Shown: positions 7,251 to 64,000 of the stretch, piece after piece | How the letters are laid out: the number at the start of each line of letters is the position of its first letter | Position numbering within the stretch: the first letter of the stretch is position 1 | Assembly (NCBI GenBank): GCA_965153455.1 | Contig: OZ234493.1 | Coordinates: 30,494,213 to 30,558,212, forward strand | Origin: Sphagnum compactum | Lineage: Eukaryota | Reading direction: 5' to 3' | DNA length: 64,000 bases | Program-made: the position numbers and the translations under genes | Notes under the pieces: generated by a model | The model's database searches: none | The model's input: the letters and a program-made list of their open reading frames with translations, nothing else | What the model was told of the DNA's origin: nothing

Positions 7251-10200
7251 CATATATGGAACAATTATTAGGTTTGTGGAATTAGGGCTTAGTTCATATA
7301 TTGCCTGCATGCAAGCAAAATTTTCAAACACTGAAATCACATATATTAAACATGTTAACATATTTGGTTAAGATTCCAAAAATATGTGTTGACTTGAATG
7401 ACAAAAATAACTTTTTATGCCCACCTTATCTACAAAAAAATCTACATAACAAAATAACATTCAAATGAGGGTCTAAACCTAAATTTTACAACCCCAAATT
7501 TTAGGAACATAACTTGTATTCACCAAATTAGTTAATATTAAACTTCCATCCTTAGGATTTAACAAGGTTGTATAGGACAGATGTTGTTTACACTTTGATC
7601 ACATGTATGGATGTATGACTAATTTTCATGAAGCCATAAAATACATGAAGTGATCAACTATTGATGATAAATGAATATGCTCATTATATTTTTCTAGGAA
7701 TTAGAATGACATTATTTGAATAGGAAAAATCTTGGGGTTTCGCATGGGTACTTTGCGGATGTATTTAATGTTAACTTAGGGGTAACAACAAAAGAGAAAA
7801 AGTATTCATGAAGCACTAGTAAGGGACATATTGCCCTAATTCCATACAAAATATTTTCATTATTATCAAGTTGATGACCATACTATTGGACCCTATATTT
7901 GTTTCACCTATACTAGCTTTGAATATCATTGTCATTGGATTTCTTATTTTATATTGTAGGTGTGTATTGTTGTTGGATATCTAGATTGACGATATTGTAA
8001 AATATCATGCATACATAATCATTTTGCACTTAAAGTGTGAAGTAATCCCCATTTTAATTGGTATATCTTACATTTGACAGTCGTGTCCAACATGTGTGAA
8101 TTATCTTTCATTTTGATGTCTCAAATGTGTATTGATTACAGAGTGTGACACATGAGACAATTATTCCAAACTATGTGAATTTTTCACATTTGTTAATTTT
8201 ACATTTTGATTTTTACAAAGTGGTTATGTGTTAAGTATAATATGTGGAGCATGTGGATTGTAAGGTTGCAAGATGCAATAACTAGTAATGCAAGTAACTA
8301 GACTAGATTATGTGGATAGGTATGATTCAAACCAAGTCATGTTCATTTGTAATACATGTTTTAGAAGTTGGCATATGGATCATTTTACACTACTCGTCAA
8401 GGAGGTATTAGCACAAAATAATATGCCCACATGATAACTTATATACAAACATTTTTATGTCTTACATGAATCATATTTTCTCTTTCCTTTTCCTTTTTGT
8501 GATATCAAAATTTGGCAACTTTGTTTCAAAAAATAGAGAAATTAATCAAATTTACAATATGAAACAAAAATTTCTCATTTTTTTGTCAAAAAATGATAGA
8601 AAATTGTTAGGAAAAAATCAATCGAACTTACATGTTAAACATCATTGTTGAGATACAAATAAATTGGTGTGGATTTATTTTTATGTGTAGAAGGTTGATG
8701 TTTGGTTAAACATTGATCATTATAAACACACACATTCACTCAAGAATCTTGCTTCTCATGTTACCCAAATCTAGAAGATTAAAAGCCATTATAGTCATGA
8801 CCCAAAACAAAATCACATTTAAATTGCTTATGAAATTGCAACACAAAAATGGTCGTAATCATAAAATTGCAATCCTAACCATGATGTGATGTTTCACATT
8901 GTTATTTAAAAAAAACCATATATCCAACTTGAATTGTATGAGGTAATTTTGTTACAAAAAAATTAAGGATATATTCCAATTATTTTTAAATTGAAAGCTT
9001 TAGCAAAATGTGGCTTGAATAAAATTATAAAATTATAATTTAAGTTCCACACGAAGTGTATCAAACCTAATACTATATTTTGAAACACAACTCTATGAGA
9101 ATGAATTTCACTATGTGATGCAAGTCATATTTACATGTACAAAAAATATATTTATAATGTTATTACCCCTCATTCAATGATTTTCTTTTATGAAAGTACA
9201 ATAAAACTTCCTTCAAATAATAATGAAGGTCACCTTTACATGTACAAATATAAAAAAGTGCCTATATTGTTGATACAAACTTGTCATTGGATAGGTTTGT
9301 TTTGTGAGGTTATGAGTTACACCCAAATTTCTTTCGCCACCAAACCTATGTTTTTTGGAAATTCATGTATTAATTAATGACATTCCATCCTTCACAAAAA
9401 GGCACATTATTTTTATAATAAATAATAATAATAATAATTTGGGATAAGGGGCAAAAAATCAAGTTATGTCCAATGATTTTTTTGGTGAAGATCGCCAAAA
9501 TGTGACACAATTTCTAAAAAGGAATATTCTATCACAATTTCCCCTTTTTTATTGCCAAATTACAATAGAAAATTGGTTTTTTGGGGAGGGTGTTACGACA
9601 TTCATATCCACATACACACATTTATGAATTCTCTAGAAAATAGTCATTAATTAATTCAAAATGAAATTAAACTTAGGAATGCTGGCCACTTTGGCTCCCT
9701 TAGGGAATTGAAAAAAGAACATTGATTAGGTGTTAATGAATTATGATTTTACAAGTGATATAGTGTAAATGTAAGGTGATGATTGGGTAGATTTGGGTAG
9801 TTTAAAAAATCTTACAATTATTTGCAATTCACAAGATTACAATGTGTTACTTAATATGTTTATGATAAGTATCAACATCATTTTTCAACCATACTATGGT
9901 TCATCCTTAAATTCAAATCATGCTTGTAAGGTTTAATTTGGTTAAAGATAACATTTCAATGTCATCATCTTTAATCCAAATCAATTCCAATTCAACTTTC
10001 AAATCAAAATCAATAATTTTAAACTTGGTTTTTCTTTTGAAAAAGGAAGTACTTGGTTTTTAGGTCACATAAAGTGTCTAAGGTTGTGGATGGTTCCCTT
10101 CCACAATTGTTAAGGTTACAATCAAACCCAAAGAGGGAATTGATTAGTGAATTACCAAAAGTAACTTGATTGGGCAAAATTTGGCATAAGGTTTGGATCA

Positions 10201-27100: not shown

Positions 27101-30100
27101 AAGTGTGAATCATTGTCAATTCACCCTCAGGGCAATCACATCCTTTCCCAGTTTCTGACCACCATAAGTGGTGCCTGAATACAAAGGACTGAGGAGCTCC
27201 AGGATTTTCATACTTTCGATGACTCATTGACCTGGTGCTTGCCCAGTGTCTTCAGCACTGTTGGTGACATCTAGCAGTATACTTAATGGTGGTCTGACTC
27301 ACAATTTGCAAGGTGCTCCTGAGTCTTAACAAATGCATGATGCTCTCTTCTTGAAAACAAGTAAAGCATGAGTGGTCTGATCAGCAAATGCTGATTCCAC
27401 TATATGGAGCCTGAGCTGAGCTTTGATGGATCCTGTGCTGCTCTCTTTCAGCAATTCTTTTTTTGACGGATGGTTCACTGATGTTGTCTCTCCAGGATAA
27501 GGCTTCAGCAGATGATTTTCTTGGAGGGCTCATGTTTGACTTATCTGAAGTTCCACAACGGAAGCCTCCTGAGAGCCCACTGCCCCCACAGTGGTATAAG
27601 CTGGAGGCAAAAAATGGAAAGGGAAGAGTTAGAGGTACTCCCTGAGAACTCTAATGCTCATCAAGCACATCAAGCATGATTTTGCTTGATGGGCATTGTT
27701 ATGAAATAGAAGTGAACTAGTTGTACACATAGGAGGGAATTTCTGATCGAGAATCCTCAACTGTAAAGCTGCTGCTAGAAAGATCTGCTGAGGCTTGCTG
27801 AATCCTACTATGAGTTTGTTGAAGAGCCATTTGAGTCAACATTAAGGTCTTTATCTGCCTCAGGGCAACAATTTTAGGAATTTACTAAAACAGAAACCAG
27901 GGTCTGGTCAATTTGCCAGCCATACATATTTTCTCCTGTATACAATCACCAATTCTCTCCTGCTCCTTGAAGTGAACTTTTCCCATCTTTCTAAACTTTC
28001 CTTTGCTTTCTCTGGGCATTTCAGGGCAGATTTTGGTTGCAATCTGGTGGGGCACACAGGCAGATGAAGCATTTCCTGAGGCCTGGCAGTCTGACACTGG
28101 TGGCCATGCGCAGTTTCGTTCAAAGGTGTACCTGTCACCAAAGCTCTGGTACTTGCGAGTGACTATCATTGAAGCTCAAGATCTAGTCCCATTTGACAAA
28201 GGGCGGTTGCCTGAACCTGTACGTGTTCAACCTTATGCTACAATATTTTAGGGATAAAGACTAGTTTGCAACAAGATTTCATGGATTGAGAGAATTTAGT
28301 CCACCTCTATGATGTCAGGTCTTATCATGTCTTCACTAACTGAAGAGAAACATGATGACAAACTGGACACATCTTTAGAGGATTGACCATATCTTCTGGG
28401 TTTGATTGTTCACTTGTAGTTTGAGGTGCAAATGTTGCTATAGACTATGTTCAGGGAAGGCAAGCAAGTTTTCTGGATTGGGACACTGCTTTAAGTCAAT
28501 GTCTGGATGGTGGTTTTGTGTCCAGTATGTGAAGGTACATGTGCCTCCCTACCAAACCTTGAGATCACGATTTGCTACTGTGAGGAGTGCCAGCCCTTTC
28601 TGGAATGAAGACTTAATGTTTGTTGTTTCAGAGCCTTTTGACGACCTACTGCACATTCTTGTGGAAGACAGAATTGGTGGCAAAGTAAGTGTGGATAGAC
28701 AAGAATTTTGGTTTTGCATCAAGCTTGTGCATTCCGCCCTGATAATGTGCTGTGCCTCATCATTGCACGGTGTGAAATGGATTTCATCAACTTGTACTGG
28801 AATGGTTGGTTGTTCCCCCTATAATTTCAAGTCACTTAATAATATTTTGAGTTAAGATCAATTCTTTCTGCAGGAGGATATCTTGGGTCATGTGCGGATC
28901 CCTCTTGGCAGTATTGAGAGTCGTGTTGATGGCCGTCCTGTTGCTTCAAGGTGATCCTTTTACTCTTTCATACTAATACCATTCACATTTTGTTCGAGTC
29001 ACCTTTTCCCTCTGAGTGTGAGATGTGCTTTTGCATGGAAGATTGAATCACCATGTCTGTCACTTTATTCCAAGCAATTCTCCACTTCACAGTGACTATA
29101 GGAGAGAATCAAGAACATACTCAACATCATTTTTTTACCAACCAGGTGGTATATACTGGAAAAGGAGCCTGGAAAAGGTGGGGGATTTCTAGGGCGAATC
29201 CACCTGCGACTTTGCTTTGACGGAGGGTACCATGTCATGGACGAGTCTTCTAACTACCTTAGCAGCACACGTCCAAGTGCTAAGCGACTCTGGAAACCTT
29301 CGTTGGGTGTATTGGAGTTGGGCATCCATGGGGCCAATAACCTACTCCCAATGAAGAGCACCAAGGACAGTCGTGGGAGTACTGATGCTTACTGTGTTGC
29401 AAAATATGGGCCAAAGTGGATTAGAACACGCACCATTTTTGACAGCTTTAATCCTCGCTGGAATGAACAGTATACATGGGAGGTTGATGATCCTTGTACT
29501 GTTCTGACTGTTGGTGTATTTGACAATCGGTATGTCCATGGCTTAGACTTGGGGTTCCAAAATCAAGTCTCAGACACTTTCTCTCCTGCTTACCTTCTCT
29601 CAACATATTGATACTGACTATGCATGTCTATTTCTCCATGGCCAATTTTATGCTGTTGATCTAGCTCATATGCAAGCAGGCTTCCAAAAGGCATAATAGA
29701 ATGATATTCCTCAAATCACTTATAGTACCCTACAAGTAGAAATTTCTTTGTGGCCTTGCAAACTCAGGCCTTTAAGTGAAACCAAGAGCAGGCATGTCAG
29801 GAGACTTTTGGGCATAGTCTTTGATCTTGAGGAATGGAAAATCCCTATAGCAGTGTGCAGCATAACCTGACCTTATTGCAATTGATTCTGCAGCCATACA
29901 TATAATCTCCTGGCACCTGATCAAAAGCCATCTGGTGCTAAGGATCTTCCTGTTGGCAAAGTACGGATTCGTCTGTCAACACTGGAGAGTGACCGTGTTT
30001 ATACCAATGCATACCCATTGCTGGTGGTCACACCCCAGGGTGTGAAGAAAATGGGGGAGGTGGAGCTGGCTGTACGGCTATCATGTGCCTCTACATTGAA

Positions 30101-31411
30101 TCTTATGTCTGCTTACCTGCAGCCACAGTTGCCACGAATGCATTACTTCTACCCTCTTGATGCAAAGCAGTTGGAAAGCTTGCGAGTTGCTGCTATGAAC
30201 ATAGTGGCTTTGAGACTAATGAGATCTGAGCCTCCATTAAGGCAAGAGGTTGTTCAATTTATGCTTGACACAGAAGCAGAGCGGTGGAGTATGCGAAGGA
30301 GCAAAGCAAACTATTTTCGTATCATGGTGTGATTTTGTGGACTTGTGAGCTAATATTTGTATTTTTACCTGTAGAGAATGATCTTGGTGCTTTCAGACAT
30401 TTCCACTAAATTGGGTGCTAATGCTAGAAAGTTCCTTCCTAGAGGCTACAGTATAATTGACTTCAATTCATTGGATACACTAAAATGCAGAGAGGGTTTC
30501 TCCTTTTTCCTGTGGGTGCAGGGTGTGCTCAATGGTGTTATGGCTGTGATGAACTGGTTTTCAGACATTTGCAGTTGGAAAAGCCCAGTCACAACAGTGC
30601 TTGTTCATATCCTTCTGTTAATACTTGTGTGGTACCCTGAGCTCTTGCTCCCGACAGTTTTTCTTTACATGTTCCTGATTGGGGCCTGGAACTATCGCTT
30701 CCGTTCCCGAGCACCTCCCTTCATGGATGCCAAGCTTTCACAGGGTGAGCACATTGGTGATCTCGATGAACTGGAGGAAGAATTCAATGTTGTCCCAGCC
30801 AGCAGGGCTCAAGAGGTCAGTAACTCCACACTATTGCCAGACAATTTTTAAGGTGTAATCAGTTTTATATCCTTGGCCAAGCAACAGATCCTTCTCGCTA
30901 ATGAACTTCAGTTCTTTTAATCCAATCTTTGAGATTATATCCAAATCAATGTTCTGCACACCTTCCTGAAGACAACTTTTGAGAAAATGTACAGGTGCTG
31001 AGAAGAAGGTATGAAAGGCTACGGGGTGTTGCTGGTCGAATCCAGAATGCACTTGGTGAACTTGCCACAATGGGAGAGCGTCTACATGCTCTTCTCAGTT
31101 GGCGAGACCCGAGGTACAACAACTATCATTCTCCTCTCACTCTCATCTGTGTTTGATTTACATTGCAACATTGGACCAACGTCTGATTGGAAAAACTGTG
31201 TGTGCTTGTTGCTGGTATGCACAGGGCGACTGCAATATTCATAACCTTTTGTTTGATTACAGCAATTATCCTCTATGTGACACCCTTCCAAGTGGTTGCA
31301 GTGCTGTTGGGTGTGTATGTGTTGCGACATCCAAGGTTTCGTGACCCCTTGCCTGCTGTACCCACGAACTTTTTCAAAAGGTTACCCTCACAATCAGACC
31401 GCATTCTATAA
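24169..31411 (+). CDS. MCTP: Multiple C2 domain and transmembrane region protein (MCTP; FT-interacting protein/QUIRKY family), 14 exons, 1020 aa
   Basis: Manually spliced exons, all with GT-AG boundaries and consistent phases: 24169-24264, 24938-25009, 25189-25394, 26092-26653, 26867-27007, 27496-27634, 28025-28218, 28526-28684, 28874-28950, 29146-29529, 29894-30326, 30522-30815, 30995-31113, 31225-31411 (3063 nt). Diagnostic motifs: KLIVEITSARALMPKDGEGSSNAY (C2A), YDLVEQMSYLFVRVVKAR (C2B), WWGTQADEAF...RSKVYLSPKLWYLRV (C2C), DGGYHVMDES...TDAYCVAKYGPKWIRTRTI...PRWNEQYTWEV (C2D), WSMRRSKAN, hydrophobic VLVHILLLILVWYPEL, and C-terminal ERLHALLSWRDPRAT...RHPRFR...NFFKRLP. Confidence 0.96.
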
Positions 31412-34522: not shown

Positions 34523-34681
34523 TATTGCAACCAAAAGTGTTTTTATTACATCAAATGATTTCATTAGATTTTGAGTGAATTCATTGATCTTAGTAAAGAG
34601 AGATTAATTGAAAAATAATGAATTCACTCATCTAATTAATGAATGGGAACTAGTGAATTACACCCACATTTTGTAATCGTA
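34523..34681. mobile_element. Diverged miniature CACTA-type element, opposite orientation
   Basis: TATTGCAACCAAAAGTGT...GATTTTGAGTGAATTCA...ACTAGTGAATTACACCCACATTTTGTAATCGTA aligns to the reverse complement of 53477-53630. The TSD is ambiguous because the element sits in TA repeats. Confidence 0.65.
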
Positions 34682-37600
34682 TATAGAGAGCTGCTGAATC
34701 ACGACAAATCTGCACTCTTCTTCCCAGTATCTGCTTATTTAAGCAGAGCTGACATTTTGTCATTCAGGCAGCGTCATTTAGTTGGAAAAATGATGAGTGG
34801 GTTGCAAACAGCTGACGCCCCACCTGGTCCCATCTCACCTGGTCTGATCCTCAAATACCTTGTCAGATTTTGCTTTTGAGTGTATATATTAAGGACAAGC
34901 TTTGTGGTGTAAGGTCCCCACCAGGTTGTACAGAGCCTTGGATCTTTTTGTAAGGTCCCAGGCAGTCTGTCATCAAAATCAGACTTGGCAGATTCGAAAA
35001 GAGGAGAAGGGTGTGTGTGTATCTATAAGCTCTGTACACCCTTCCACAATTTCAGTTCCTGACTCTTGCCCACAGCAGCAGCTCAGGCAGCTCATAAATC
35101 CATAGCTGGAGCTGCCTGGGAAGGGTCTAAAAGATTAAACCATTTTTGTCAATATTGTAGTAGTACAATGGCAACTTCGACACTAATTATATTATTTTTT
35201 CAAAAATGAGAAAATTTTCAAAAAAGAATTTCTTTTCAAAGAACATAAATAGAGAATCTTTTCAAATGCTTCGATTTTATTTTATTTTTGTGCATGGAAT
35301 CTTCAAAATAGATAAAAATAATTATAGGATCACTTGAAATGTTGAACTTTGGCCATGTTACTACCATATCAAAAGAACTATGAACAAGGGCAGTATTCGG
35401 AGAAGGGGGAATACCAGGTTTGTACAGTGTAGCTCACATGTTAGACGAGAAGTCGTCCAGTATCCCTTTGATGAGGTTATCTCATCATGCCTTGGCAGAA
35501 AGTCACAAGTTCTTCAGCTCTTCTGGGCTCTTCTAGTGCATAAAGAAGGGCCCTTCCAGTACATAAGGAAACTGGCAAAGATTTTCTTCAAAACTTGAAA
35601 TGACCTTACTAATCTTCCTCAAACCTTTGATCACCTCTAGGCAACATAAGGTAACTCTTGGTGTGAGCAGGACATTATGTCAGATAAGGGTGGTCCAAGT
35701 ATACTATGAAAATCTTTGTGCCCTTCACTTATCCATTATAAAATTGGCAAAGATTTTCCTCGAACCTTGGAGTGACCTTAGGAAACATAAGATAACTCTT
35801 GGTATGGTTTAGTGTTTTTTTTTTTTTTCTGGCAAAAAATGGCCAAATTTCTATTTTATAAAAAGTGCAGCTACTTGTACAAAGGAAAAAAGGGGGAGAA
35901 CTCATGAAAGTTCACCGGAAAACATCTGGCACTAGATGTGATGGGCTAGATTGCACTACATCAACAGTTTCGATTCGCCAATCTAAACCCTAAACCTTTA
36001 TAGGGTGTTGCCAAGTAGTGATGACAGCAGTCGTTGATCTCGCCAACAGGGAAGATCTCGAAGGTGCAAAGAGCTGGGTTGTGAGGAAGTCATCTTCTTC
36101 CTTGTCGGCTTGTTTTGCACAAGAGTTGCAACAATTTGCCAAGAGGAGCTTTCATTGGTTTTTGGTTCTTGTCAAGTCTTTCCTTTAGTGTATGCATTGT
36201 TGCCAGAGTCTTGTTTGTGCTCGCCAAAAGGGCGGGTCTTCATGTGGTGGATGAAATGTTTCTTCAATGTGCATGAAGACAATAGAGCTTCGCTTGTGTT
36301 GTTTGGAGTTGGCATTGATGTTTGTCTCGAAGCTCTTACCAATAGAGGGAGTATTTCTTCCTCCAAAGCCATTGTATTTATTTGTTGAAGTCCTTTTGTG
36401 CATTTTGTATTGAATCGTCGAAGCACTTTCGTGCTTCATTGCAATGTGTAGGATAGAGGTCCATTGTAAGCATGATGTGTGTCATTAGTTTCAAACTAGT
36501 CTGATGTGCTTGTGTTCTTCAATGAGACTTGCTTGAGATTTCTCGTGCATCACAATCCTACAAAATCCCAAGAGCATCCATGAGACTGTCGTCAAAATTT
36601 GGATCGAATCTCCATGGGAGGTGTGAGGTGAGTAGGATTTTGTGTTCCAAATTTTGTAGAATTGTTCATGTGTGTTTTTGTGATTTTCAATCGATCAGTG
36701 GTCTAGAGTGCATGTTTGCGTGTTCACCATTGTAGGGGATTATGAGCCCATGAGCTTTGAAGGGATTTGGTAGGGAATTAAGATGTGCCAAATTAACCAT
36801 GTTTGCACTTCTTTCAGTTTGGATAAATAGTTTAGCCCCCCCCTCACCCCTTTTTCATATCTTGTTAGTGTTGGTTGTTTGTCAGCTCTAGCTTTTTTTG
36901 GATGAAATCATGGTCAAAAGAACTAGGGGCACCAAGGTAAAAGTCTTTTCCAAGGACTACGCATGACCTATGTCATTTTTGTGTTGATTTATAACTTAAA
37001 ATTTTATATTTCAGATACCCCATTCAACAATACATTTTAGATATAAATACATTTTGATTACAAATTGATTTTATATCATGTATATTATGCATTCACGCCC
37101 TCTATCACATATATATGAACAAATTTTGTTAAAGTTGCATTTTCAAAATCCATAATTTTCAAGGTCAAAAGCACTTTTGAACTAAATGTGTTCAAATGGG
37201 TTATAAAAATAATTTTCATCAGTTCAAGTCTTTTTGCCCTTCTAATCATCAATGTCAAAATCCTCTTCAATTTTCAAAAAGAATGGTCCACATTTGGTAG
37301 AAAAAAGTATGTTTGAAAAAAACAAGGATTGTTCATTTTCAAGGTTTGAATGCTTTGAACATGTAAAAACATTTTTGATCTGTGTCAAGCTTTGGGCATG
37401 TAAACTTTGCAATTGATGGAAAATATTCCAAATTTTTTTATGAAAAGATTTAAATTATTATTCTTCCTTTGTGATCTTTCAAATCAAACATACAAAAATG
37501 TAGTTTTAAGGAGTGTCCACTCACTTAGCTGGCTCCTTTGATTATGATTTGATCCTTTTGGTTTGTGTTAATGCAATTTGCATAGTGCATTCTCAACTTC

Positions 37601-48098: not shown

Positions 48099-50926
48099 AT
48101 GAGGAGGAGACGTCTGCCACTGGATTCTACATATGATGTGAGGCGCTGCACGGAAATTCTAGCTTTTGTGCTGATTTCATCAGCTGCGACTGCGCTCAAT
48201 TCAGCACAGGTACTCACCAGATCATGCTCTTGAACTATTCTCGAGATCCCACCTAGCTCTACTATTACTACTGCTACTACCCATCTGGAGGTTTTGTGTT
48301 TTGGGTCTTGATCCGGCTTCTGAACAAAAAAGAAAAAAATTCTGGTCGGATCTCACGGTTCTTAGGTGATGAACTCGTGCCGATTGGAACTGAGATGTTT
48401 GGATTTGTGTATCTGACTCGCACGACCAGGGAATCCCCATCATTGCTCCATGGCCGAACCATGGGGGCGGTCTCGCGAATCGAAGGGAAGCTCCTATTAG
48501 CAGCATAATCAGCAAGGAGACAATCTCATCGCTTGCCGTGAAGTGGAGCTTCAACGTCAGCAACCAGATTACAGCAACCCCAGCAATTGCAGACGGGACA
48601 ATCTACTTCCCGACTTGGACCGATGGAAACGTCTATGCCGTGAATGCGGCTACGGGATACATTGTCTGGACTACCAATGTGTCGGAGGCGACGGGTCGGA
48701 GTGGGATTTTCTCCCGATCAACCCCAACAGTCGCTGATGAATATCTTATCATTGGAGTGTATGCACCCGGCCTCATCATTGCGCTTTTCCGTGGGAATGG
48801 TTCTGTGGCATGGACGCAGATTGTGGAAGAAAGCCCTTATGCCCAGATCACCATGTCCGGAACCGCATACAACGGGTGCGTGAACTCCCACCCAGAATCC
48901 GATCGGTTCTTGTCAGTGCCCAGATATATGCCGCTAGCGAAAGAAGAAGAATTCGCTAAAGCAAGGGACTTTGTGCTGCAAACCTCAAGAATTAATCATC
49001 ATGTGTTTTCTATGCGATTTGCAGATCGTTTTTTGTTGGTGTTTCATCGAATGAGGAGCAGCAGTATGCAAACAAATGCTGCACATTTCGGGGGAGTTTT
49101 CTGAAGATGGAAGCTCACACCGGAACCATCTTGTGGAAACAATACATGGTTCCTGACAACCACGGAGAGGTCGGGTTCTACAGCGGGGCTGCAGTCTGGG
49201 GGAGCTCACCTGCCATTGACATAGCTCACAACACGATCTACATCGCCACTGGTAACGACTACTCCGTGCCGCCTGAGATCACAGCGTGCCAAGCCCAACA
49301 CAACAACTCAGTACTCCCTGACCCTTGCTTCAAACCCGGCGACTTGCAAGAATCCGTGGTGGCTTTAGATCTCGACACTGGGGAGATCCAGTGGTCGACT
49401 CATTTGGGAAGTTTCGATGTGTATGTGAACGATTGTCATCATACTCCGCATCCCTATTGTCCTCCGCTTGCCGGCAACGATTACGACTTCGGAGAATGCC
49501 CAATGTTGCTATCCATACCAGCTCTGACTGCAGATGGAGAAGAAACCATAAGAGAAGTCTTGGCGCTCGGTCAGAAGAGTGGTGTGGTGTGGATGCTTGA
49601 CCGACTCAATGGGTCCGTGATTTGGGCCACTGTACGTATTCTCTTTTCACTATACTCCTTTTCTCAATCTCCTCGTACTTAGGGTCTCTTCCCATTAGGT
49701 TGCTGGGATCGCAGTACGATACACACATTGTGCTGTACGTAGGATCTCTTTCCATAATTAGGATGCCTGTGATGTCAGTGGCTTGTCATTAGGCTGCTAT
49801 GATCACAGTTATACACAGTGTGTGGTACTTCGGGTCCCTTATCCCTTTGCTGCAGGATAGTCGCTTTCCACGGGAGACCTGCAATTTGCATTGAAAATAT
49901 GTAATTAATCATGTTAGGAACTCTGGGAACACATGTTTTCATGAAAAATTTGACAAAATGTCACCGTATGATGAATCACAATTTTACCCACAGATCTCAG
50001 AGCTCCTGCAATCGGTCAATTCTTAACCTGTGCTCACATCTCTCACAGCTCCTACAATTGGTCAATGCTTGATGACCAATAGAGAAGTGACTGTGAGCAC
50101 AGCTGGTTGGAAAAACATAAAGAAAAGCTGCTGTTGATAGAGCAGCCGAATGGCAAGATGTCCTAATTCACACTCATGTTTGGAGGAACATCACAAACTC
50201 CAGCAACTGGTAAAGGTTCAGGGTTTTAGGGTTTACCTCGCCCTCCAGTTCTAGCAACATCACAATTGATCACCCAAGTTTCAAAACACCGGAAGAAAGG
50301 CCAGTCTAGAAGAAGAAGATGATGCAAAGAATCATGCAATCGACAAAAGGTGTACAGTATTCTGTAATGCAGTAGTCTGTAATGCAGCTGCTCTTGCTTG
50401 CTTGCTTGCTTGCTTGCTTGCGGATTGATGGACTGATGAAATTGGGTGCCTTGTTTTTTTTGGGAAGGCGGCGGGACCAGGAGGGTCTGCGGGAGGAGCT
50501 ACGTGGGGATCAGCAACAGACGGGATCAGAATCTACACCAACATCGTGAACAGCAAGAACCTCAACTTCACGCTGCGGCCGTCGTCGGAGGTCACCAACG
50601 GAGGAGCTTGGGTAGCCATGAACGCTTCCACCGGCGACGTTCTTTGGTCTACAGCCGTGCCCGGTGGATATTACGCTCACGGACCGGTGAGTATTAGCAA
50701 CGGCGTGGTTCTGGTTGGGTCTGCCGGGCCACCCGGGGGAGTGTATGGGCTGGATGCCGACACCGGGTCCGTGTTGTGGTCTGCGCCCACCGTCGGATCC
50801 GTGTACAGCGGATTCTCCGTTGATGACTATTGTGGGTACATAGGATCAGGTGTGAACGCGAATGCCGTAGGCAAGAATACAACGGGTGGACAAACCATTT
50901 ACGCCTTTTGTCCCTCAATAAAATAA
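48099..50926 (+). CDS. Quinoprotein alcohol dehydrogenase-like (PQQ-repeat) beta-propeller protein, plant 'polyvinyl alcohol dehydrogenase-like', probably secreted; 4 exons, 540 aa
   Basis: Exons 48099-48209, 48430-48875, 49025-49631, 50468-50926 (1623 nt, GT-AG, phases consistent). Exon 1 encodes a hydrophobic signal-like stretch (ILAFVLISSAATALNSAQ). Family motifs WPNHGGGLANRR, ITATPAIADG, SRSTP, ITMSGT, VGVSSNEE...CCTFRGS, YSGAAVWGSSPAID, DYDFGECPML, GQKSGVVW, GPGGSAGGATWGSATDG, plus repeated Trp-docking motifs (AVNAATGYIVW, ALDLDTGEIQW, AMNASTGDVLW, GLDADTGSVLW). The start codon is the least certain part. Confidence 0.9.
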
Positions 50927-51679
50927 AATAATTTTTAACAAAATCCACCAATCCGGATCCATACACCCACCCTCCCTCCCTCCCCTCCCCTCCCTCCCTC
51001 CCTCAATGTTTTAATACCAAGCTTTTTTTTTAATTATTTAAAATTATTTTACCTTGCATTATGTTAATATGGATGTGTCACTAGTTCATTAGGAATTTCA
51101 ATAATCATTTAAATCACCACCTTTTTCTTTTTTTAATCGATTTAATTTTTCATTCCTTTCCTTAATTTTGATGTGTTCTAAATATGGATGGATGTTGATG
51201 AATCCTTTTCTCTCCAAAAGCTAACCGTTTTAGCTCAGTGTTTTTTTTGGGGTTTTTTTTTGTGTCAAAATTATTGCGAAATTTAACAATTAAAATTAGC
51301 AAAATTAGTCGAATTTACATTGGCATTTTTTTATTAAAAAATCCCAATTTCTTTGTAAAAAAATGGCAAATTTTTGTCAGAATGTTTTTTAAAAACTCTC
51401 TAAATTTAGCTTAGTTGAATCAGGAGCTTAATTACCCAAGTACAGGGGGCAGCTTCAAAGATGTCTGCCAAATTTATAAAAAATAAAAAAAAAGATTCTT
51501 CATTTTTCATTCAGAAAATTTGTTCTTTGAAAAATGTAAAAATATCACCTTTCAAAAATCCTAATATAAAAATAGACCTATTATTATTACCTAGTAGGGG
51601 CCAAAATCCTTATTAAGCTACTGAACTCTATAATGAATGTAAACACAACAATATCCTTGCCTTGGTAGGCAAGGCCAAT

Positions 51680-51685
<6 letters not shown>

Positions 51686-51716
<31 letters not shown>
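51686..51716. repeat. (TA)n microsatellite
   Basis: Uninterrupted TA run. Confidence 0.9.
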
Positions 51717-51717
<1 letters not shown>

Positions 51718-51871
51718 TATAAGTATATATCTAAATTGTGAGAAACTTTAAGAGAAAGGAACTCTTGAATTATTATTGAACCAAATCATAATCACTATAT
51801 TGAATCTTAACAATTGAGTTTTTGGCAGTAATGAAGTTCTTGAGGATATCAATCTTCCTTCTCTTTCCCTG

Positions 51872-52023
51872 CACTATTACAAAATGTGGGTGCAGTTCAC
51901 TAGTCCCTGTTCACTAGATCGATGAATTCACAACTTCTTCACTGGTCCCCATTCACTACAACCAGTGAATTCACTCAAAATCCACTGAAATCACTTGGCG
52001 TACAAGGATACATTTTGTTGTAG
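51872..52023. mobile_element. Miniature CACTA-type element, second copy (terminal TG missing)
   Basis: Near-identical to 53477-53630. Begins CACTATTACAAAATGT, ends ACATTTTGTTGTAG, and is flanked by CTG on both sides. Confidence 0.82.
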
Positions 52024-52470
52024 CTGTCATGTGACCATTTTTGTGGTTTGAAGTCAGTGGTTCCTGGTGGCAAATTAGTACCAATGCAACAAGTGTAGAT
52101 TTGTTAATAATTCCAGTGATGAGAGGATTTCTGATGAGCTAGCTGCATTGGCGCTGCTTCTTCTTCTTCTTCTTGGTCTCCTACACCATGTCCCATCTGC
52201 ACAGACCCACAACACCCAATGCAGCTTTCAGCTCCCGGCGGCTATGCTACACTTGTAGACAAAGCCTACATATTATGTTCTCTGCAAAATTAGTCTCTGG
52301 CAAGTTGCTGTCTGTCAAAAGCTATAACCTGTACTGATCTAAAACGTTGCCATTCAGTGTTAGCTAAAATCAACTCCTTGGCAATGAGTTTTTATTGTAT
52401 ATATAAATAGCAGTTTCAATCGGTCTCTCCTCTCATGTTTTGCTATAACATCAGTTAGCTGCAACAACAA

Positions 52471-53184
52471 TTAGGGATCCATGTTTGGGTTAGGAGCAAA
52501 TGTTTGTGTGTGGGCAACATCATTGGAGTTGCTGTTGTTGGCTGCTACTGCAGTCGCTGCATCCAGGAGCTCAAATTGGTCCTTGTTCATCCGCGACACT
52601 TCAGATGGTGACAAAATCTTGATTGACCGCACACAATCCACAAATTCCCTGTATACAACTCATCACAGGGCAACAATCAGGTATGAGTTCTTCCAATAGA
52701 ATAGAAAAACAAAAAGACAATTGTTTATACACTGCTGGACTGACAACCAAAAGCTCAAACAAACTAAAAAAAAACTATCAAACCAAGAACCAAAGCTCAA
52801 ACAACTGAAAAACTAGGCACCAAAAAGAAAGCAGGAAAACCAACCTAGAAGGTTGTGTTTCCAGGACAAGAACTAGTGAATCAACCAAGATTCTTCACCA
52901 CCCAGCATAGAAAAACTAGTGAAGACACTAGTAAAGAAAGGCAACATAGGAAGAACAGGACGAGGGTTTACTCCCATGGATCATCACTAACTAATAGTGT
53001 ATCATTCTCATGGATAACATACACAAGTTGCCAACCTGATTTTACTGGTCCATCCAGTATGCCTTCTAAGTCGAACATTTGTGCAAGCTTTACTGCGCAG
53101 CTCTGCAATACTGCACAGCTCTGCATAGTTGTGAAAGTTCCTGATGTCCAAAGATCTTCCTAATTATATTCCAAACTTATGTAC
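52471..53184 (-). pseudogene. ARF: 5'-truncated, disabled auxin response factor fragment: last two exons encoding the PB1 (domain III/IV) region
   Basis: Minus-strand exon 53184-52972 (after an AG acceptor) reads [30 protein letters not shown], then a +1 shift, then [44 protein letters not shown] intron follows (52971-52649). Exon 52648-52471 reads (E)EFVDCVRSIKILSPSEVSRMNKDQFELLD...MDP*. This matches the class-A ARF PB1 consensus (GRSLDI..F..Y.EL..ELA.MF..EG.L..P..SGWQLV.VD.END.LL.GDDPWEEFV..V..IKILSP.EV). It carries an in-frame TAA, an 18-bp tandem duplication plus frameshift near 53090-53125, and no recognisable upstream exons. Confidence 0.9.
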
Positions 53185-53476
53185 CTAGGAAGGATATTCC
53201 ACACAGACTATTGATCAAAAAAACAAATCAAATAGGCGACAGAAATGAGTTCTTGACATAACTTTGAACTTTTGCGGTCTCTCATAATTAAGAGCATAGA
53301 AGAACAATTCATAAGATTTGACATCTTGATACTCATGCAATGTGTTTTTTCAGCTTTAAAATGATTATGTGAGATCCGTTGAAGTTCTTATATGTACGAA
53401 AAAGGCATTGAAAAAAGTTTTGCTACCTTAGAAAAATGTTGGTGATGTTTTTCAAATGGAGCTCACTAATTCTATC

Positions 53477-53630
53477 CACTACTACAAAATGTGGGTGCAG
53501 TTCACTAGTCCCCGTTCACTAGATTAATGAATTCACTATTTCTTCACTGTTACCTGTTCACTACAACCAGTGAATTCACTCAAAATCCACTGAAATCACT
53601 TGGCGTACAAGGATACATTTTGTTGTAGTG
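53477..53630. mobile_element. Miniature CACTA (En/Spm)-type non-autonomous element, 154 bp
   Basis: TIRs CACTACTACAAAATGT / ACATTTTGTTGTAGTG, 3-bp TSD ATC on both sides, and internal TTCACT/AGTGAA subterminal repeats. Confidence 0.88.
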
Positions 53631-54419
53631 ATCACATTTACTAATAGGTGATGCCACTCTCACAATATTAAAGAGCATTTACACACGCACCCTTCAAGTG
53701 GGCCTCTACAAGCGTTTACCACATCCAATATAGAATGTTAATTATTTCCCCATTTCCACCCCACAAACATGAAAAAATTTGAACATGATAAAGTGAGAGA
53801 CTATTTTGTAATTTATGCACCTATGCCAATAATTGTAACAAGCTAATCAAAAGTAATTTCTTTTTTCTTTTACTAGACCTTTTGTAGAGCATTATATATC
53901 ATGTGCCTATTTACAATTCCAAACCCAATTTCACACTTGTACTTCACCCAAAGTAACTTGTACAAGGCCATTTTCCAACTTTTAGGGCAGATGGGTGAGG
54001 TGCAACATTGCAATAAAATATGGTTATCATACGTGTTTTTTTATAGGAATTTTTGTTTGTGGCAATCATCCATAGGAAGATGTACAACAAGTTATCATCA
54101 TCCCTAGAAAGATTTAGCCAATTTGACTGTGTAACAAATTTTTCAGAAGTACCAATCTTAATCATCATCCTATATTTTTGGCTACACATTAAAAGTCAAA
54201 TATAGAAATATGCTTTTTTTTCCTTTTTTTTCCTTCAATGCAGATGATTAAACTTCCAAAATCTTCTCATTTTTTAATTTTGAATTTTGAATTTTACTTT
54301 TGGTGAAATCTCATCGATAAAACTACAATAGTTATCATACAATAGGAGCATTTGGCTCATGACATGGGTGAAACCTTGAAACTGGGGATCAAACCTAAAA
54401 ATAGGAGGTGAAATGAGAT

Positions 54420-55380
54420 TTGAACCTGTTTTTTGGCACTTTTTTTTTTGTTTCGGCACACTTGAAGGACTTTGAAACTTTTTTTTGTTTGGGGACACTT
54501 GAGGAACTTGTTTGATGTTTTTTTTGGCCAATTTTTTTTGTTTGGGCACATTTGAGAGACTCTTTTGAAACTTGTTTTACCCCTTCTTCTTTTTTGGGCA
54601 CACTTGAGTGACTTCTTTGAAACTTGTTTTGACATTTTTTTGTTTGGACACACTTGAAGAACCTCTTTGATCTTCCTTCAAAACCACCTTCTTTCACAAG
54701 GCACATTTGAAAGACTTCTTAGACCTTGTACTTTCAAACATTTTTAAACAATTTTCATTACAAAGCAATTTTAGGATTATGAATTGGATAGGATGATTTT
54801 TAGAGTTTGTTCTACATGGAATTATATAGTTGAAATCTTCCAATTTCCACATCTTTCTCATTTTCATTTGTGAGAGCTTCATCATTTTTTACCCTCATTT
54901 GAGACTCTTCCAACTTAGTTCTTTCTCAAGCTTACTCATATGTTGTCATTTTTGTTTTTATTTTCACTCATTGCTTAACTTTTTTCTTGTCTTTTATGTT
55001 TTCTTGTTTTCTTAAGGTTTTTAAATGTTTTCATGTAGATTTTAGAGTTTTTTTAGGCTTGTTGGATGAACTTTTATAGGGCATCTTTTTTAGAGGACTT
55101 TTAGGGGTTTTTTTAGGGTTTTTTTTAGGGTTGTTGGGTGAACATTTTTAAGGGGTGTTTTTTTTGAAGACTTCTAAGGTTTCTTTTATGGTTGTTGCAT
55201 GAACTTTTTAACAGTTTTTTTGGGGAGGATTTTTAGGGTTTTTTTAGGCTTGTTGGTGGGCTTTTTTAAAGTTTTTTTTGAAGATTTTTAGGTTTATTTA
55301 AAAACTTGTTTTTAGGTTTTTCTGGGGAGCTTTTTTGAGTTTTTCTTTTAGGGTTTTTTGGTGGTGTTTTTTAACACTTC
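54420..55380. repeat. Two degenerate tandem arrays: GGGCACACTTGA-T-rich units (~54420-54720) and TTTTAGGG/GGTTGTTGG-rich units (~55040-55380)
   Basis: Repeated G(G/A)CACA(C/T)TTGA followed by T-runs, then repeated TTTTAGGG...GGCTTGTTGGATGAACTTTT units. Confidence 0.75.
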
Positions 55381-58300
55381 TTTTACAACATGGTTTTTTT
55401 AATGGTGAAGTTCTTTCTTAGACATGGTTGATTTTGATAGTTCCTTATCAAATAGTAATGAAATGATGTTTTAAAAAACATGTAGGCAACATCAAATTGT
55501 GTTCACAGTTGTAGTTGTCAACATAACACATTAAAGTTTTTCAACATTAATGAGTTGGAAGTGTTGGACAATTAATCAATCAAAATGTGGTGTTTGAAAT
55601 GTGCTTACCATAATGTAAACAACTCTGAGGTTGTTAAAGACTTTAACAAACTTCAATTTGTTAAAATTTGATGAACTAGCAGCATTAGTGGTCCCCACCA
55701 TCAAAGCCAATGTGAAAACTATTGGTGGGGCTTGACTGTGACAAGGCACAAGAAAAAATTTGGGGATATGCAACCATCCTATTTTGTGACTATGTATTGT
55801 TTGCGACTACTAATAAGGTTGAATGCACAATTGAGTGTTTCAATATCGACAAAAATTACATTCCTTATAAGTCCATACAAGATCCTTTAAAATGATTCAA
55901 ATGGAAATGAGTTTTTTTTGAAAGATGTTATTATTATAATCTTTAGATAATACATGTTCAATCACTTATAAACCTTCCCAAATCTATGTGAGAACTTGTA
56001 TTTAATGTCGCTGATGTTATTTTTTAATTTAGAAGTCCTAAAAGGAAAACCCACAAAGTTTTTAAGAATAATGCACCATTTAAAACTTTCAAAATCATAT
56101 GGTTTTGGAACAAATAAATTGAAAAAACAAACAAAAATTGCAACTCATATGGACTTATGAAAATATGATCAAATTTTAACCATTCAAAAGTTTTTAACTA
56201 TCAAACGGTTAAGGTTTTCAAATAAAAGATTCCTCATATGAATTTATCATCTTTTATTACATCATATATTGAGTTGCAATAACAAATTTGGAATGTGAAT
56301 CAATATAATTTTTTTCATTTTGTGATGGTCCAATCAAACAATCAGTCCATATTTTTCAACTTCAAAAGTCCATTACTACTAACAAATGAATTTTTTTATC
56401 AATAAATAACCACATAATTCTTTTCATAATGAAGTTATTAGTTTTGATCCAAGTCCCATTTAGTAAATCTAAGGATATATTAATCAACGTATGCATTTGA
56501 ATAAAGGGTACCTAAGAAAAAAATATCGTTTCGTCACAATAGTGAAACATTCAATTATGCATCTACCCATAAGCATATGTATTTAGGGATGTACAATTAA
56601 AAAATCTACTTAGATTATAATAAACATTTATTATGAATATTATAAACATATTTGTAAGGTTTAATGTAAAGTTTTTGTGAAAAGGACATTCAGGGTATAG
56701 TAAAGGTGTAAAAAAATGATTTAAGTTTTTTTTTCTCATCAATAATTATAATATAATTATTTATTATTGAATAATTATTTAATTAATAGTAACTAGTTAC
56801 TAATAGTTGATAACTAAATAATTATCAATAGTTAATTTCTACAAATATTTGGAATTAAATATTAATAGAAAATTTTAAATTTTCATAATTAATTAATTAT
56901 TTTTCTAATATAATAAATTAATAAATAGTTGAATTTTACTATTAAATTTATTTTACTTATTTTTATTTTTATTTTTCATCATTGAAATAATATACGAGTT
57001 AATAAATTAGACCTAATGATTACTCAATTGATATTTTAATATCTAATCATCAATAAATTATAATTAATTTTTAATTAATTTCATTAATAAATTTTATTAC
57101 TTATTTAGTCAATAAGATTAAGTACTACCTAATAAACTAAAACTAGTTATTAATTAATTAATTGCTAATTAACTAAAACTAGTTAATTAATCAATTAGTT
57201 ACTTATTATTGAATTTTTAATATGAACTAATTATTCATTTCATGTTAGTATTTTATTAATTATCAAATAACTATTAATTAATACTTGATCCTTCATGTTT
57301 ATTTATTTATTTATATGATTTATTGATGGATGTTTATTATTGATTAATTAATTAGTTAATAGTAACTTTAATTAATATTTGATGCCACTAAAAACCATAA
57401 AAAGACGAATTAATTAGAATTATAATTAATATAATAAATTTTTATAAACTTTATATTCAATAAAGATATGTTTAAAATGAAGGGAGATATAATATATTAT
57501 ATCATCATCATCAACAATCAAATATTTTCTGATAGAAAATAAATTTTAACAATAGGTTTATTCAGAAATTATGTTATTTGAAAGATTTTTTCCCCTTAAA
57601 ACATATTGTTGAAATGTATGAAATTAAAAAAATCAAATGCATTTTCAATCAAATTATTAATTATTCTTTTATTAAGAAATTATACGTGTGAAAAGCTTGG
57701 GAAAAAAAATATAGAATGATTATTTTTTTCATTTCAACAAAATATGAGAAAGATGATAGTGGTTAAAGAAAGAAAAAAGTTTCAAATTTTGATTGTTGAA
57801 ATGTATTAAATTACAATATTCAAATGCATTTTCAGTCAAATTAAATTTTTTCTTTCTTTCAAATATTAAAAATGTGGACATCTTGGAAATAATCTCCTAT
57901 AATGAAGTTTAATTATTTTTCTTTTGAATAGTATGAAAAATATAAAATAATGAAAATTGGTTTTTGACAAAATATATATTTTTTCAAATCCAATCATCAC
58001 CTTATTCATTTCATATTAAATAGGTGGTTGGATGGCAATGGTAATGGGTTATTACCTTAAAGTTCAAGGTTGAAACCTTGATAAAACTTCCCATGTGGTC
58101 AATGGTGTTTGTTGATTGTAAAATCAACAATGTAGGTACATACAATGATAAATGGGCATATATGCACATAAATAATTTTTTTATTAATAATAGAAAAATA
58201 ATTAATATTTTATATTTTAAATTAATAATCAATGCCATGTGACAATTTCTTGATTTGATTATTTCCTAGTGAATTTGCGTGAGTGTGTCAATTCATTTTC

Positions 58301-58429
58301 AATCACTAAAAGATGTGTTAAAATCACATGATTTTTAATATAATGAATTAATGGTGATTTGATTTAAATGATTATTGAAATTCCTAATGAACTAGGGACA
58401 CATCCATATTAACATAGTGCAAGGTAAAA

Positions 58430-59030
58430 TAATTTAAAATAATTTGAAAGTATAACTTATAATAACTCATAATAGGATAACGGTTAATATCCTAGGGTAG
58501 AAGAATTGATAATAGCTTATAGTATAATATGTTGAAATAATTTAAGGTGAAATAATCTAGAAGAATAAAATATAATTTAAAATATAATAATTTATAATAA
58601 CCTAAGTTGAAATATTTAAAATATTTGATGTAATATTTGGGTAGAACAACTTTAAATAACATAAGGTGTAATTTTTTTGAATAACCAAAAATAATTTAGG
58701 GTGGAATGGCTTAAAATAATTGAGAATAACCTATAATAATTTAAAATAACCTATAATAACTTAAGGTGGAACAACTTAAAATAACCAAGAAAAGCCTAGG
58801 GTAGATAGCCTAAAATAACATAAATTGGAACATGTTAAAATAAAATATAATGAATTAGTCTAAAATAACTAAAAATATCTTAAGTTGGAATAGCTTAAAA
58901 TAACCAAGAATATTTTAAGGTACAATAGCTTGATGAGAAATAACCAAAAATAATCAAGAATAAGGTAAGGTAAAATAATTGAAAATAACCTAGGGAAAAA
59001 TAATCTATATTAGTTTAAGGTATTTAAAAT
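58430..59030 (+). repeat. Degenerate AAATAACC(T/A)AA minisatellite array
   Basis: Recurrent AAAATAACCTA / TAAGGTG(A/G)AATAA units. Confidence 0.75.
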
Positions 59031-59401: not shown

Positions 59402-59535
59402 CAGTACAACAAAATGTGTCCATGTTCATCGAGTGATTTCACTAGTCCCACTAAACAAGGCCTAATGGGGATCCAATGGATTCAGTAGTCCATTGAGCCC
59501 AGACTAATGAACTACACCCACATTTTGTAAAAATG
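59402..59535. mobile_element. Diverged miniature CACTA-type element, opposite orientation
   Basis: CAGTACAACAAAATGT ... GAACTACACCCACATTTTGTAAAAATG matches the reverse complement of the 53477 element ends; flanked by TAA on both sides. Confidence 0.7.
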
Positions 59536-62619: not shown

Positions 62620-63010
62620 TCACTCTACATTATTTACGGCTATTTATGGTTATTCTCAAATTTTTGGCTATTTCACTTTATGCTACTTGTGATTATTTTA
62701 AGTTACTTTTAGTTATTTTAGCTTATTTCACCTTAAGCTATTTTCGGTTATTGTAAGTTTTTTGGGTTATTCTATGTTATTTTTGGCTATTGTAAATTAT
62801 TTCACTTTAAGTTATTTGTAGCTATTATAAGTTACTTTTGGATATTCTAAGTTATTTCATCTTAAGTTATTTTTTATTATGTGAGGTTATTATTGGTTAC
62901 TTTTGGCTATTGAAGGCTATTTCACCTTATGTTATTATTGATAATTTTAGGTTATTGTAGGTTATTTCACCTTAAGTTACTTTTGTCTATTATAGATTAT
63001 TTCACATTAC
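62620..63010 (-). repeat. Same AAATAACC minisatellite array in inverted orientation
   Basis: Recurrent TTATTTCACCTTAAG(T/C)TATT units, the complement of the 58430-59030 array. Confidence 0.75.
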
Positions 63011-63049
63011 ATTATTATTGGCAATCCTAAACAACTTTACTATATGGCT

Positions 63050-64000
63050 ATTACTTGTTCTTTTATTGGGGCTATTGGTAGTTATTAATGGCTATTGGTA
63101 CCTATTCTACTGGTGGCTATTAATGGTTATTTTATTAATAGTTATTGGTGGTTATTCTATTGATGACTATTAGTAGTTATTCTGTTGGTGTCTATTGATG
63201 GCTATTCTATTAATGGCTATTGGTGGCTATTATATTGGTGATTATTTTATTAATGGCTATTGGTTGTTATTATATTAATGGCTATTGTTTGTTATTTTAT
63301 TAATGACTATTGGTTGTTATTATATTAATGATTATTAATAGTTATTCTATTAATGGCTATTGGTTGTTATTATATTAATGATTATTAATAGTTATTCTAT
63401 TAATGGCTATTGGTTGTTATTATATTAATGATTATTAATAGTTATTCTATTAATGGCTATTGGTTGTTATTATATTAATGGCTATTGGTAGCTATTCTAT
63501 TAATGGCTATTGGTGGCTATTATATTGGTGGTTATTGGTTGTTATTCTATTAACGGCTATTGGTGGTTATTCTATTGATGGCTATTGGTTGTTATTATAT
63601 TAATGGTTATTGTTTGTTATTATATTAATGACTATTGGTTGTTATTATATTAATGATTTTTAATAGTTATTCTATTAGTGGCTATTGGTTGTTATTATAT
63701 TAATGGCTATTGGTAGCTATTCTATTAATGGTTACTAATGGATATTCTATTAATGGTTATTGATGGATATTCTATTGGTGGATATTGGTGCTTATTAATG
63801 GCTATTATATAAGTGGTTATTATATTGGTGGATATTTTGTTAATAGATATTAGTGATTATTAATGGTTATTATATAATGGCTATTGGTGGCTATTCTATT
63901 AATGGCTATTACTGGATATTTAATTAATGGAGATTGGTGGTTATTAATAGTTATTGTATTAGTGGCTATTGGTGGCTATTCTATTTATGACTATTGGTAG
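63050..64000. repeat. ~25-bp minisatellite (TATTAATGGCTATTGGT(G/T)GTTATT) with a 50-bp higher-order repeat; runs off the window end
   Basis: The 50-mer TAATGGCTATTGGTTGTTATTATATTAATGATTATTAATAGTTATTCTAT repeats almost perfectly across 63301-63480 inside a longer degenerate 25-bp array. Confidence 0.92.

Follow-up and report, generated by a model that had tools for sequence, protein, structure and literature searches.

An intron-keeping, disabled fragment of a class A auxin response factor gene in Sphagnum, joined out of order from pieces of one gene

The locus studied here raises the question of how the 3' end of an auxin response factor (ARF) gene came to lie on its own in a stretch of peat-moss DNA rich in transposon-like repeats, and whether such a copy ever had a function. 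An earlier note on the window, by which we mean the whole stretch of 64,000 nucleotides that was analysed, had described a disabled ARF PB1 fragment with its intron retained, and had proposed a transposon-captured or partially duplicated piece that may once have encoded a PB1-only decoy. Our analysis confirmed that the fragment is real and revealed that it is more extensive than had been stated. A disabled, DNA-level partial duplicate of a class A ARF, which kept its introns and has an intact parent elsewhere, was supported throughout. Permuted and inverted pieces of the same gene, which had been overlooked, are present at both ends of the copy, and they are the best clue to the mechanism.

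In a tblastn search of the window with the Sphagnum ARF P0018, two minus-strand exons were recovered with E values of 5e-23 and 6e-21. Exon A (52972..53184) runs from the V-H-K-x-G motif of the PB1 domain to DDPW, and exon B (52471..52648) is the coding part down to the natural stop, which is present at its end as described before; together they encode the C-terminal part of PB1 and the tail. With X placed at both breaks, exon A matched the PB1 sequences of ARF5 (PDB 4CHK and 6L5K) and ARF7 (4NJ6), with E values of 2e-15 to 1e-14. Pfam gave AUX_IAA for exon A alone at E 0.0036 and 17.6 bits, under the cut-off of 22.7, and returned no family for the three unjoined pieces of the fragment. Among named proteins, those closest to the fragment are auxin response factors of Sphagnum. 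In a protein tree, which was built without class B or class C rows, the fragment fell within a Sphagnum clade of class A-type ARFs (support 97/95), on a long end branch of 0.19; the tree does not tell the paralogues apart, and it is the DNA comparison that resolves the paralogue of origin.

The splice sites proposed for the fragment agree with RNA of the parent and its relatives, which skips exactly 52649-52971 (119 reads). As had been claimed, the window holds no exon of the B3 or middle region, the best tblastn E value outside the fragment being 0.2, and the fragment is invisible to the track of open reading frames, with no minus-strand frame of at least 100 amino acids covering it. Rfam gave no matches in 50900-56000.

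The extent of the copy is larger than the two exons. The main tract occupies 53429-52247 on the minus strand and equals positions 6194-7320 (1,127 nt) of L001, a locus that carries a complete ARF gene of the P0018 type, and further pieces of the same gene reach 52162 and 53474. At the left breakpoint the tract begins with the last 3 nt of the upstream exon (53427..53429, minus strand), where the alignment to L001 starts at 6194, and no anchored extension further into that exon was found. These 3 nt are the lysine codon of RTFTK, where we presume the invariant PB1 lysine to be placed. This lysine had been assigned to a missing exon; its codon is in fact kept just before the donor site, and it is the remainder of the exon that is gone. 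In the passages of PMC7051960 that concern PB1, the residue is given as the 'lysine in beta 1'.

The tract continues, all on the minus strand, with the whole intron before exon A (53185..53426), whose GT..AG ends are intact and which shows 23 differences from L001 over 227 aligned nt. Exon A follows, with a length of 213 nt compared with 191 in the parent, and then the last intron (52649..52971), which is retained and has a 40-nt insertion relative to L001. After exon B, delimited by tblastn and by alignment to L001, come the first 224 nt of the parent 3' UTR (52247..52470), which is cut off and bears no poly(A) tail; parent RNA reads run on in L001 sequence past this cut-off point (116 loose ends). 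The claim of intron retention was therefore right in kind, with two whole introns kept and not one. A retrocopy was rejected because the introns are kept and no poly(A) tail is present. We also rejected an ordinary ARF with its upstream exons beyond the window, since the parent's previous exon abuts the intron and homology here ends 3 nt into that exon. The features found at the locus point to a non-processed (duplicated) pseudogene fragment of a class A ARF.

With regard to the parent, a metagenome scan returned at least four loci (L001 to L004). Among four Sphagnum paralogues compared by tblastn, P0018 gave the best fit in both exons. It is a protein of S. troendelagicum that shares a cluster with S. 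magellanicum CY35_15G023400, and the Sphagnum parent is represented by CAK9205694.1 / CY35_15G023400. L001 serves as a stand-in for the true parent, which is known only from reads and short contigs. That an intact and expressed parent exists elsewhere follows from spliced parent-type RNA and from parent contigs, about 90% alike, of the same organism. The copy differs from L001 by 10.1% in the intron before exon A, 8.9% in exon A, 12.5% in the last intron, 12.4% in exon B and 11.9% in the 3' UTR, and its two introns match L001 at 90% and 87%, at the parent's positions.

The same comparison places the copy in time. The last intron has an alignment score of 289 against L001, compared with 30 and 21 against the paralogues L003 and L004, with which it does not align. 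Between L001 and L003 the dS is 0.46 and the intron cannot be aligned; this dS is near the younger of the two whole-genome duplication peaks that the Sphagnum results in PMC9946827 place at Ks 0.41 (0.406) and 0.64. As the last intron is alignable to L001 but not to L003 or L004, and as the dS between L001 and L003 lies near a duplication peak, the copy must be much younger than the genome duplications. A remnant of a paralogue from those duplications was rejected as well, given that the non-coding distance between the copy and L001, 0.126 (about 12%), is off the peaks and no neighbours are shared. Scaling this non-coding distance by the published duplication date gave an age of 32-38 million years, which is a rough figure, as a synonymous rate was applied to introns and the faster mutation of methylated DNA was ignored; the crown radiation of Sphagnum has been published as 7-20 million years. 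The terminal residue is proline in the copy, in S. troendelagicum and in S. balticum, and leucine in L001, S. magellanicum, S. compactum and this organism's RNA; the copy's proline would be in line with an old origin. The downstream neighbour of the parent ARF (L001 10359-11500, minus strand), named from its translation, looks like an expansin-like gene. None of the six neighbour-gene frames of the window matched L001 to L004, which, like this expansin-like neighbour, counts in favour of the templated insertion proposed below.

The copy is disabled. The in-frame TAA (53164..53166, minus strand, with a 3-nt insertion relative to the parent), the D-to-I change (VDHEND to VIHEND) and the G-to-S change (GDDPW to SDDPW) were all found as reported. 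The 18-bp duplication and the frameshift are also both there; they are, however, one 19-nt insertion (18-nt tandem duplication plus 1 nt; 53090..53108, minus strand, by alignment to L001) and not two events, and the 3-nt insertion at the TAA is separate. The 3 nt at 53162 are absent from 38 of 74 RNA reads and present in contigs of a second sample and of another organism, B. The altered residue, now isoleucine, is the first aspartate of the OPCA motif D-x-E-x-D and one of the two positions at which the 4NJ6 chain has alanine. The exon encoding beta-strand 1 is absent from the copy. By the frameshift, an ATG at 53126 is put in frame, which opens a spliced frame of 110 codons to the natural stop that contains neither beta-strand 1 nor beta-strand 2 of the PB1 fold.

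Sequencing data from 4 of 23 runs were compared, their sources including a second sample of the same organism and organisms B and C; seven moss-metagenome and three metagenome RNA rows, with shares of at most 0.22 (X11-X16, X18-X20 and X23), were left out as evidence. In the second sample, contigs over 52024-52624 and 52787-53500 carry 3 other letters each. These contigs run over the junctions and the lesions, so both are real. An assembly error was accordingly rejected for the lesions, which lie within the contigs spanning 52787-53500 with 3 other letters and 1 gap. Contigs of the second sample and of organism B also show the 19-nt insertion, with 1 and 6 gap letters, respectively. The contigs of organism B correspond to those of the second sample at about 98%, lesions included. 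In organism C, a contig of 52157-52498 spans both right-hand junctions with 13 other letters, and a second contig joins the intron to the upstream flank. The lesions are thus shared by the second sample and organism B, and the odd junctions recur in organisms B and C. All three organisms examined carry the insert, so that none of them offers an empty site. The depth of the junction contigs was 18 compared with 12-15 for parent contigs in X4, and 37 compared with 36-43 in X9; as the two are about equal, the fragment is single-copy and was never amplified. The flanks 52024-52102 and 53841-53998 are likewise at single-copy depth.

A side observation concerns exchange between copy and parent. At 53273, parent-type and copy-type contigs of organism C share a letter that is absent from the window, organism B and L001, and the copy of organism C shows 30 differences over 354 nt at 53118-53471 compared with 28 over 845 further 3'. 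Gene conversion between copy and parent in organism C is possible, at one site only.

The ends of the main tract carry three further pieces of the parent gene. After the 3' UTR, in permuted order, comes a 57-nt direct piece (52162..52218, minus strand) of the parent's transcribed 5' leader region (L001 1412 to 1468), with 89% identity and an E value of 2e-16, a match reached by none of 100 shuffles. Its source lies upstream of the parent start codon, and sense reads of parent RNA extend over it, 14 of 14 at two sites having the letters of the parent. Between this piece and the 3' UTR lies an inverted piece of about 30 nt (52216..52248, plus strand) from the parent 5' region (L001 1746 to 1717). 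Its score of 38 was reached by 0 of 300 and 0 of 100 shuffles and by 0 of 565 real 37-mers of the window, and it overlaps the 3' UTR tract by 2 nt and the 57-nt piece by 3 nt; the chance of such overlaps is about 0.16 and 0.05 under equal base use, which is weak alone.

The third piece, 24 nt of the parent intron in inverted orientation (53451..53474, plus strand; L001 6259 to 6236), lies just outside the left breakpoint. Its score of 31 was reached by 1 of 300 shuffles against L001 1-8000, by 3 of 100 against all of L001 and by 2 of 2000 against the 600 nt around the breakpoint, as well as by 4 of 1333 real 47-mers of the window. The score against the parent intron is higher than that against the copy's own intron (18). 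These scores give moderate support to an origin of the left piece in the parent intron.

Four pieces of one gene are therefore joined out of order and on both strands, with L001 6194-7320 followed by 1412-1468 on the same strand. L001 does not account for about 20 nt at the left end and about 135 nt at the right, and comparison of 52156-52024, 53631-54000 and 51735-51870 with L001 gave no source over shuffle level. An 11-nt inverted repeat (52216-52226 and about 52142-52152) brackets the 57-nt piece, and its outer arm, judged by eye, resembles L001 1717-1727 in direct orientation, so that a further short templated piece may form part of the right end.

We consider that there is about an even chance that the fragment is a templated insertion with template switches, that is, a scar of DNA-break repair that was dead on arrival. 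This origin is favoured because the pieces come from one donor on mixed strands, the overlaps are short, the fragment is single-copy and no element ends are contemporaneous with it. A broken DNA end at the locus would have primed on an ARF gene of the P0018/L001 lineage (S. magellanicum CY35_15G023400 type). Four tracts would then have been copied from a 6-kb stretch of this one gene, with template and strand switched between tracts, in the series 24 nt inverted, 1,127 nt direct, 30 nt inverted and 57 nt direct, after which synthesis would have rejoined the other end of the break. Because no promoter or upstream exon came along, the copy would never have worked as a gene and would have decayed neutrally, and two mini-CACTA insertions would have flanked it later. 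Points that count against a templated insertion are the lack of an empty site among the organisms examined, the shortness of the overlaps, the moderate standing of the left piece, the unsourced ends, the long range of the copying, the use of L001 in place of the true parent and an 85-nt inverted pair with possibly eroded element ends.

The four tracts with their order, strand and overlaps, the single-copy state, the lesions, the neutral pattern and the later arrival of element 1 are observed; it is the break and the template switching that we infer, and polymerase theta-type joining, synthesis-dependent annealing and fork stalling are indistinguishable here. Both the 1.1-kb length of the main tract and the distance of 4-5 kb to the source of the fillers exceed what is typical of polymerase theta fillers. 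For Arabidopsis, the junction data in PMC10923293 give a mean of 2.4-3 nt for polymerase theta, with forward or reverse templated fillers, and a median overlap of 2 nt is given for gap-filling duplications in the corresponding part of PMC8277862. The present locus resembles the Arabidopsis system, as it is described in those sections, in its 2-3-nt overlaps and its short forward and reverse fillers near the incoming DNA ends, and donors in that system can be other molecules. In contrast, this locus is natural, old and fixed, its main tract measures 1.1 kb, its pieces come from opposite ends of the gene, and the enzyme would be known only by inference.

A reintegrated DNA circle is a rather unlikely alternative. 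In this case L001 1412-7320 would have been excised or copied and closed end to end with the 30-nt inverted filler, and the circle would have reopened near 6194 and integrated here, about 4.7 kb being lost at integration or later; the same trace would be expected if the junction of a head-to-tail tandem duplication had been captured. The 3' end followed by the 5' end on one strand is indeed the signature of circle-mediated duplication in the examples from human, cattle and yeast that PMC7188851 includes, in which the donor end precedes the donor start on the same strand at an unlinked site. Moreover, the source of the junction filler lies 300 nt in from the 5' end, and that of the left filler about 40-65 nt in from the left end, which is expected when free molecules are end-joined. 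However, the outer ends (1468 and 6194) are 4.7 kb apart in the donor and would adjoin in a clean circle, and the extra inverted fillers are unlike that system. No remnant of the missing part was detected either, since the 133 nt beyond the 5' piece are at shuffle level (72/200) and the window gave no further ARF exon in tblastn. With the same low probability, the locus would be the fossil, in a plant, of a gene-sized circle or gene loop, in which the ARF 3' end was joined to its own 5' leader; it would have been reintegrated elsewhere tens of millions of years ago, and several peat-moss lineages would have kept it since. If this were true and such 3'-to-5' junctions were common among Sphagnum gene fragments, mosses would regularly move gene fragments by way of circles or promoter-terminator loops, apart from transposon capture.

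Capture by transposons, as the earlier note had proposed, found no support in the flanking elements. Repeat comparison identified a mini-CACTA element on each side. Element 1 (53477..53630) has 154 bp, 16-nt terminal inverted repeats with 1 mismatch and the target duplication GAT. Element 2 (51872..52023), in the same orientation and 92% like element 1, has the target duplication CAG and has lost the first 2 nt of its inner end. In contigs of organisms B and C, 53473 or 53471 is joined directly to 53631. The upstream element 1 is thus missing from both of the other fragment-bearing organisms and was inserted after the fragment, and the composite CACTA transposition was rejected for this reason and because of the unlike target duplications. 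A screen for Helitron ends (hairpin plus CTRR) gave two sites in the 64 kb (3475 and 50163), neither of them at the fragment; the screen is a simple one that an eroded end would escape. No 8-12-mer is shared between the flanks of the fragment.

We regard it as improbable, to the same degree as the circle, that the fragment was captured in a Helitron or Pack-type DNA transposon that has since lost its ends to erosion, with the scrambling arising during capture. In favour of this, transposon-like repeats abound around the fragment, 7.4 kb of the region lie between the arms of an 85-nt inverted pair, and capture is thought, in the relevant section of PMC8277862, to involve gap filling with template switches. 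Against this stand the differing target duplications and the absence of element 1 elsewhere, the outcome of the Helitron screen and of the flank comparison, the single-copy state of the fragment and the resemblance of the 85-nt pair to pieces of a dispersed repeat. The likeness to Pack-CACTA and Pack-MULE elements, as parts of PMC6379663, PMC8277862 and PMC13317346 present them, lies in the intron-keeping gene fragment, and the two direct-orientation CACTAs on either side, one with its inner end clipped, recall the Pack-CACTA precursor proposed in the corresponding part of PMC6379663. In contrast to Pack-CACTA, element 1 is later than the fragment, the outer target duplications differ and there is no sign of movement or multiplication.

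The 85-nt inverted pair (51032-51116 and 58360-58444) is 96% alike, and no target duplication was seen at it. The motif at its outer end also occurs at 58960 and 62598, next to 20-mer arrays, and the pair looks like pieces of a dispersed repeat. Collinear short repeat matches had also raised the idea of long decayed terminal repeats at about 51200-51560 and 55915-56230; it was rejected, as the best inverted alignment scored 112 and shuffles gave a mean of 103 and a maximum of 144. Relatives of the 154-bp CACTA-ended family are present at 34528-34687 and 59402-59535, and the summed contig depth of the mini-CACTA family is about 3,000 times the single-copy level across the three organisms. Tandem arrays with periods of about 52, 12-72, 20 and 25 nt occur at 54479-54723, 55040-55380, 58480-59020 and 62693-63980, and are probably internal or subterminal parts of non-autonomous transposons.

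It is very improbable that cDNA of an unspliced or half-spliced ARF transcript, such as the splicing intermediate of intron plus 3' exons, was patched into a break: the main tract does begin 3 nt before a splice donor, one 5' piece is transcribed in the parent and both kept introns occur in polyA RNA (mean depths 3-17 compared with 76-206 in exon bins), but two pieces are antisense, no poly(A) tail is present, the 3 letters of exon sequence ahead of the donor agree with the parent and both introns are kept.

Expression was assessed in one stranded polyA run from one sample with the same species label, of which about 12% was read. A total of 1,050 RNA reads were aligned; 1 was at least 99% alike and 15 were 95-99% alike. 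Among the 40 of 321 difference rows that were examined, those in exon B and the 3' UTR showed the other letter in all sense reads at 30 of 31 sites, and in 158 of 159 at the last site. RNA letters equalled L001 at 33 of 38 compared sites, and reads with the copy's letters numbered 0 of 141 at 52292 and 0 of 21 at 53238. Two intron rows were mixed (4 of 16 at 53206 and 4 of 12 at 53273); as their neighbouring rows gave 21 of 21 and 20 of 21, we read them as parent alleles or alignment effects and not as copy transcripts. No transcript with the copy's letters was seen in the 12% or so of this one polyA run that was read. Nor did these reads show any read-through from the PQQ-fold gene that converges on the fragment (stop at 50926), the RNA depth being zero at 52024-52102.

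The substitution pattern fits a copy that was neutral, or dead, from birth. The pN/pS was 0.47 with transition-weighted sites and 0.34 unweighted; the weighted value agrees with the 0.5 that a single neutral branch would give (p=1.0), and a ratio of 0.15 on both branches was rejected (p=0.0002). The fragment was not significantly better kept than its flanks, with 23 differences over 1487 nt compared with 18 over 750 in organism B (p=0.18), and 58 over 1199 compared with 30 over 484 in organism C (p=0.28).

The suggestion of a PB1-only decoy thus found no support, as neither a promoter nor an upstream exon came with the copy, beta-strand 1 is lacking, the substitutions fit neutrality from birth and no copy transcript was seen in one polyA run. 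More broadly, we see scarcely any likelihood that the copy serves, or once served, as a PB1-only decoy or as a source of siRNAs that tunes the parent ARF. The frameshift-opened frame of 110 codons, the two intact splice sites of the last intron and the persistence of the fragment in three organisms could be taken in its favour. One-faced PB1 domains are still able to dimerise, as noted in part of PMC12041631, and maize captured fragments produce siRNAs, according to a part of PMC13317346. On the other hand, the run, from a polyA library blind to 24-nt siRNAs, gave no copy transcript (one sample, about 12% read), the frame is without beta-strands 1-2, the first acidic OPCA residue is altered, and the substitution pattern and flank comparison are as described above. 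In addition, the divergence of about 12% would leave few windows of 21-24 nt that match the parent perfectly.

Apart from the copy, parent-type RNA covers the last two introns at about one tenth of exon depth in polyA RNA, and several database proteins of a paralogue cross the upstream splice and end at DDPWE. These observations suggest that retention of the last intron is frequent in Sphagnum ARFs.

In sequence, intron positions and tail, the fragment is like the PB1 of class A ARFs (ARF5 4CHK and 6L5K; ARF7 4NJ6; CAK9205694.1 / CY35_15G023400). It differs from them in having no DNA-binding and middle region and no beta-strand 1, in its stop and frameshift and in the changed first OPCA aspartate, and it was not seen expressed. 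As an element of auxin signalling it is probably unimportant, since it is broken and no expression of it was seen. Both pseudogene fragments that keep introns and templated insertions are already known, and the locus is a new and well-resolved example; no description of the present Sphagnum fragment appeared among the matches listed from open-access text. Its value lies in being a clean and datable record of gene-fragment movement without a transposon carrier. It also cautions that transposons beside a gene fragment can be later arrivals, and the shared junctions and lesions are a potential presence/absence marker across Sphagnum.

Two other genes of the window were observed. An intron-containing gene for a PQQ-type beta-propeller protein (about 48190-50926, plus strand; Pfam PQQ_2, E 8e-10 and 3e-8) is convergent with the fragment and likely includes a signal peptide exon. 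Further upstream, a gene at about 24800-30850 (plus strand) encodes PRT_C together with several C2 domains and is presumably of the MCTP type; its low-complexity stretch at 26063-26689 is rich in Lys and Glu.
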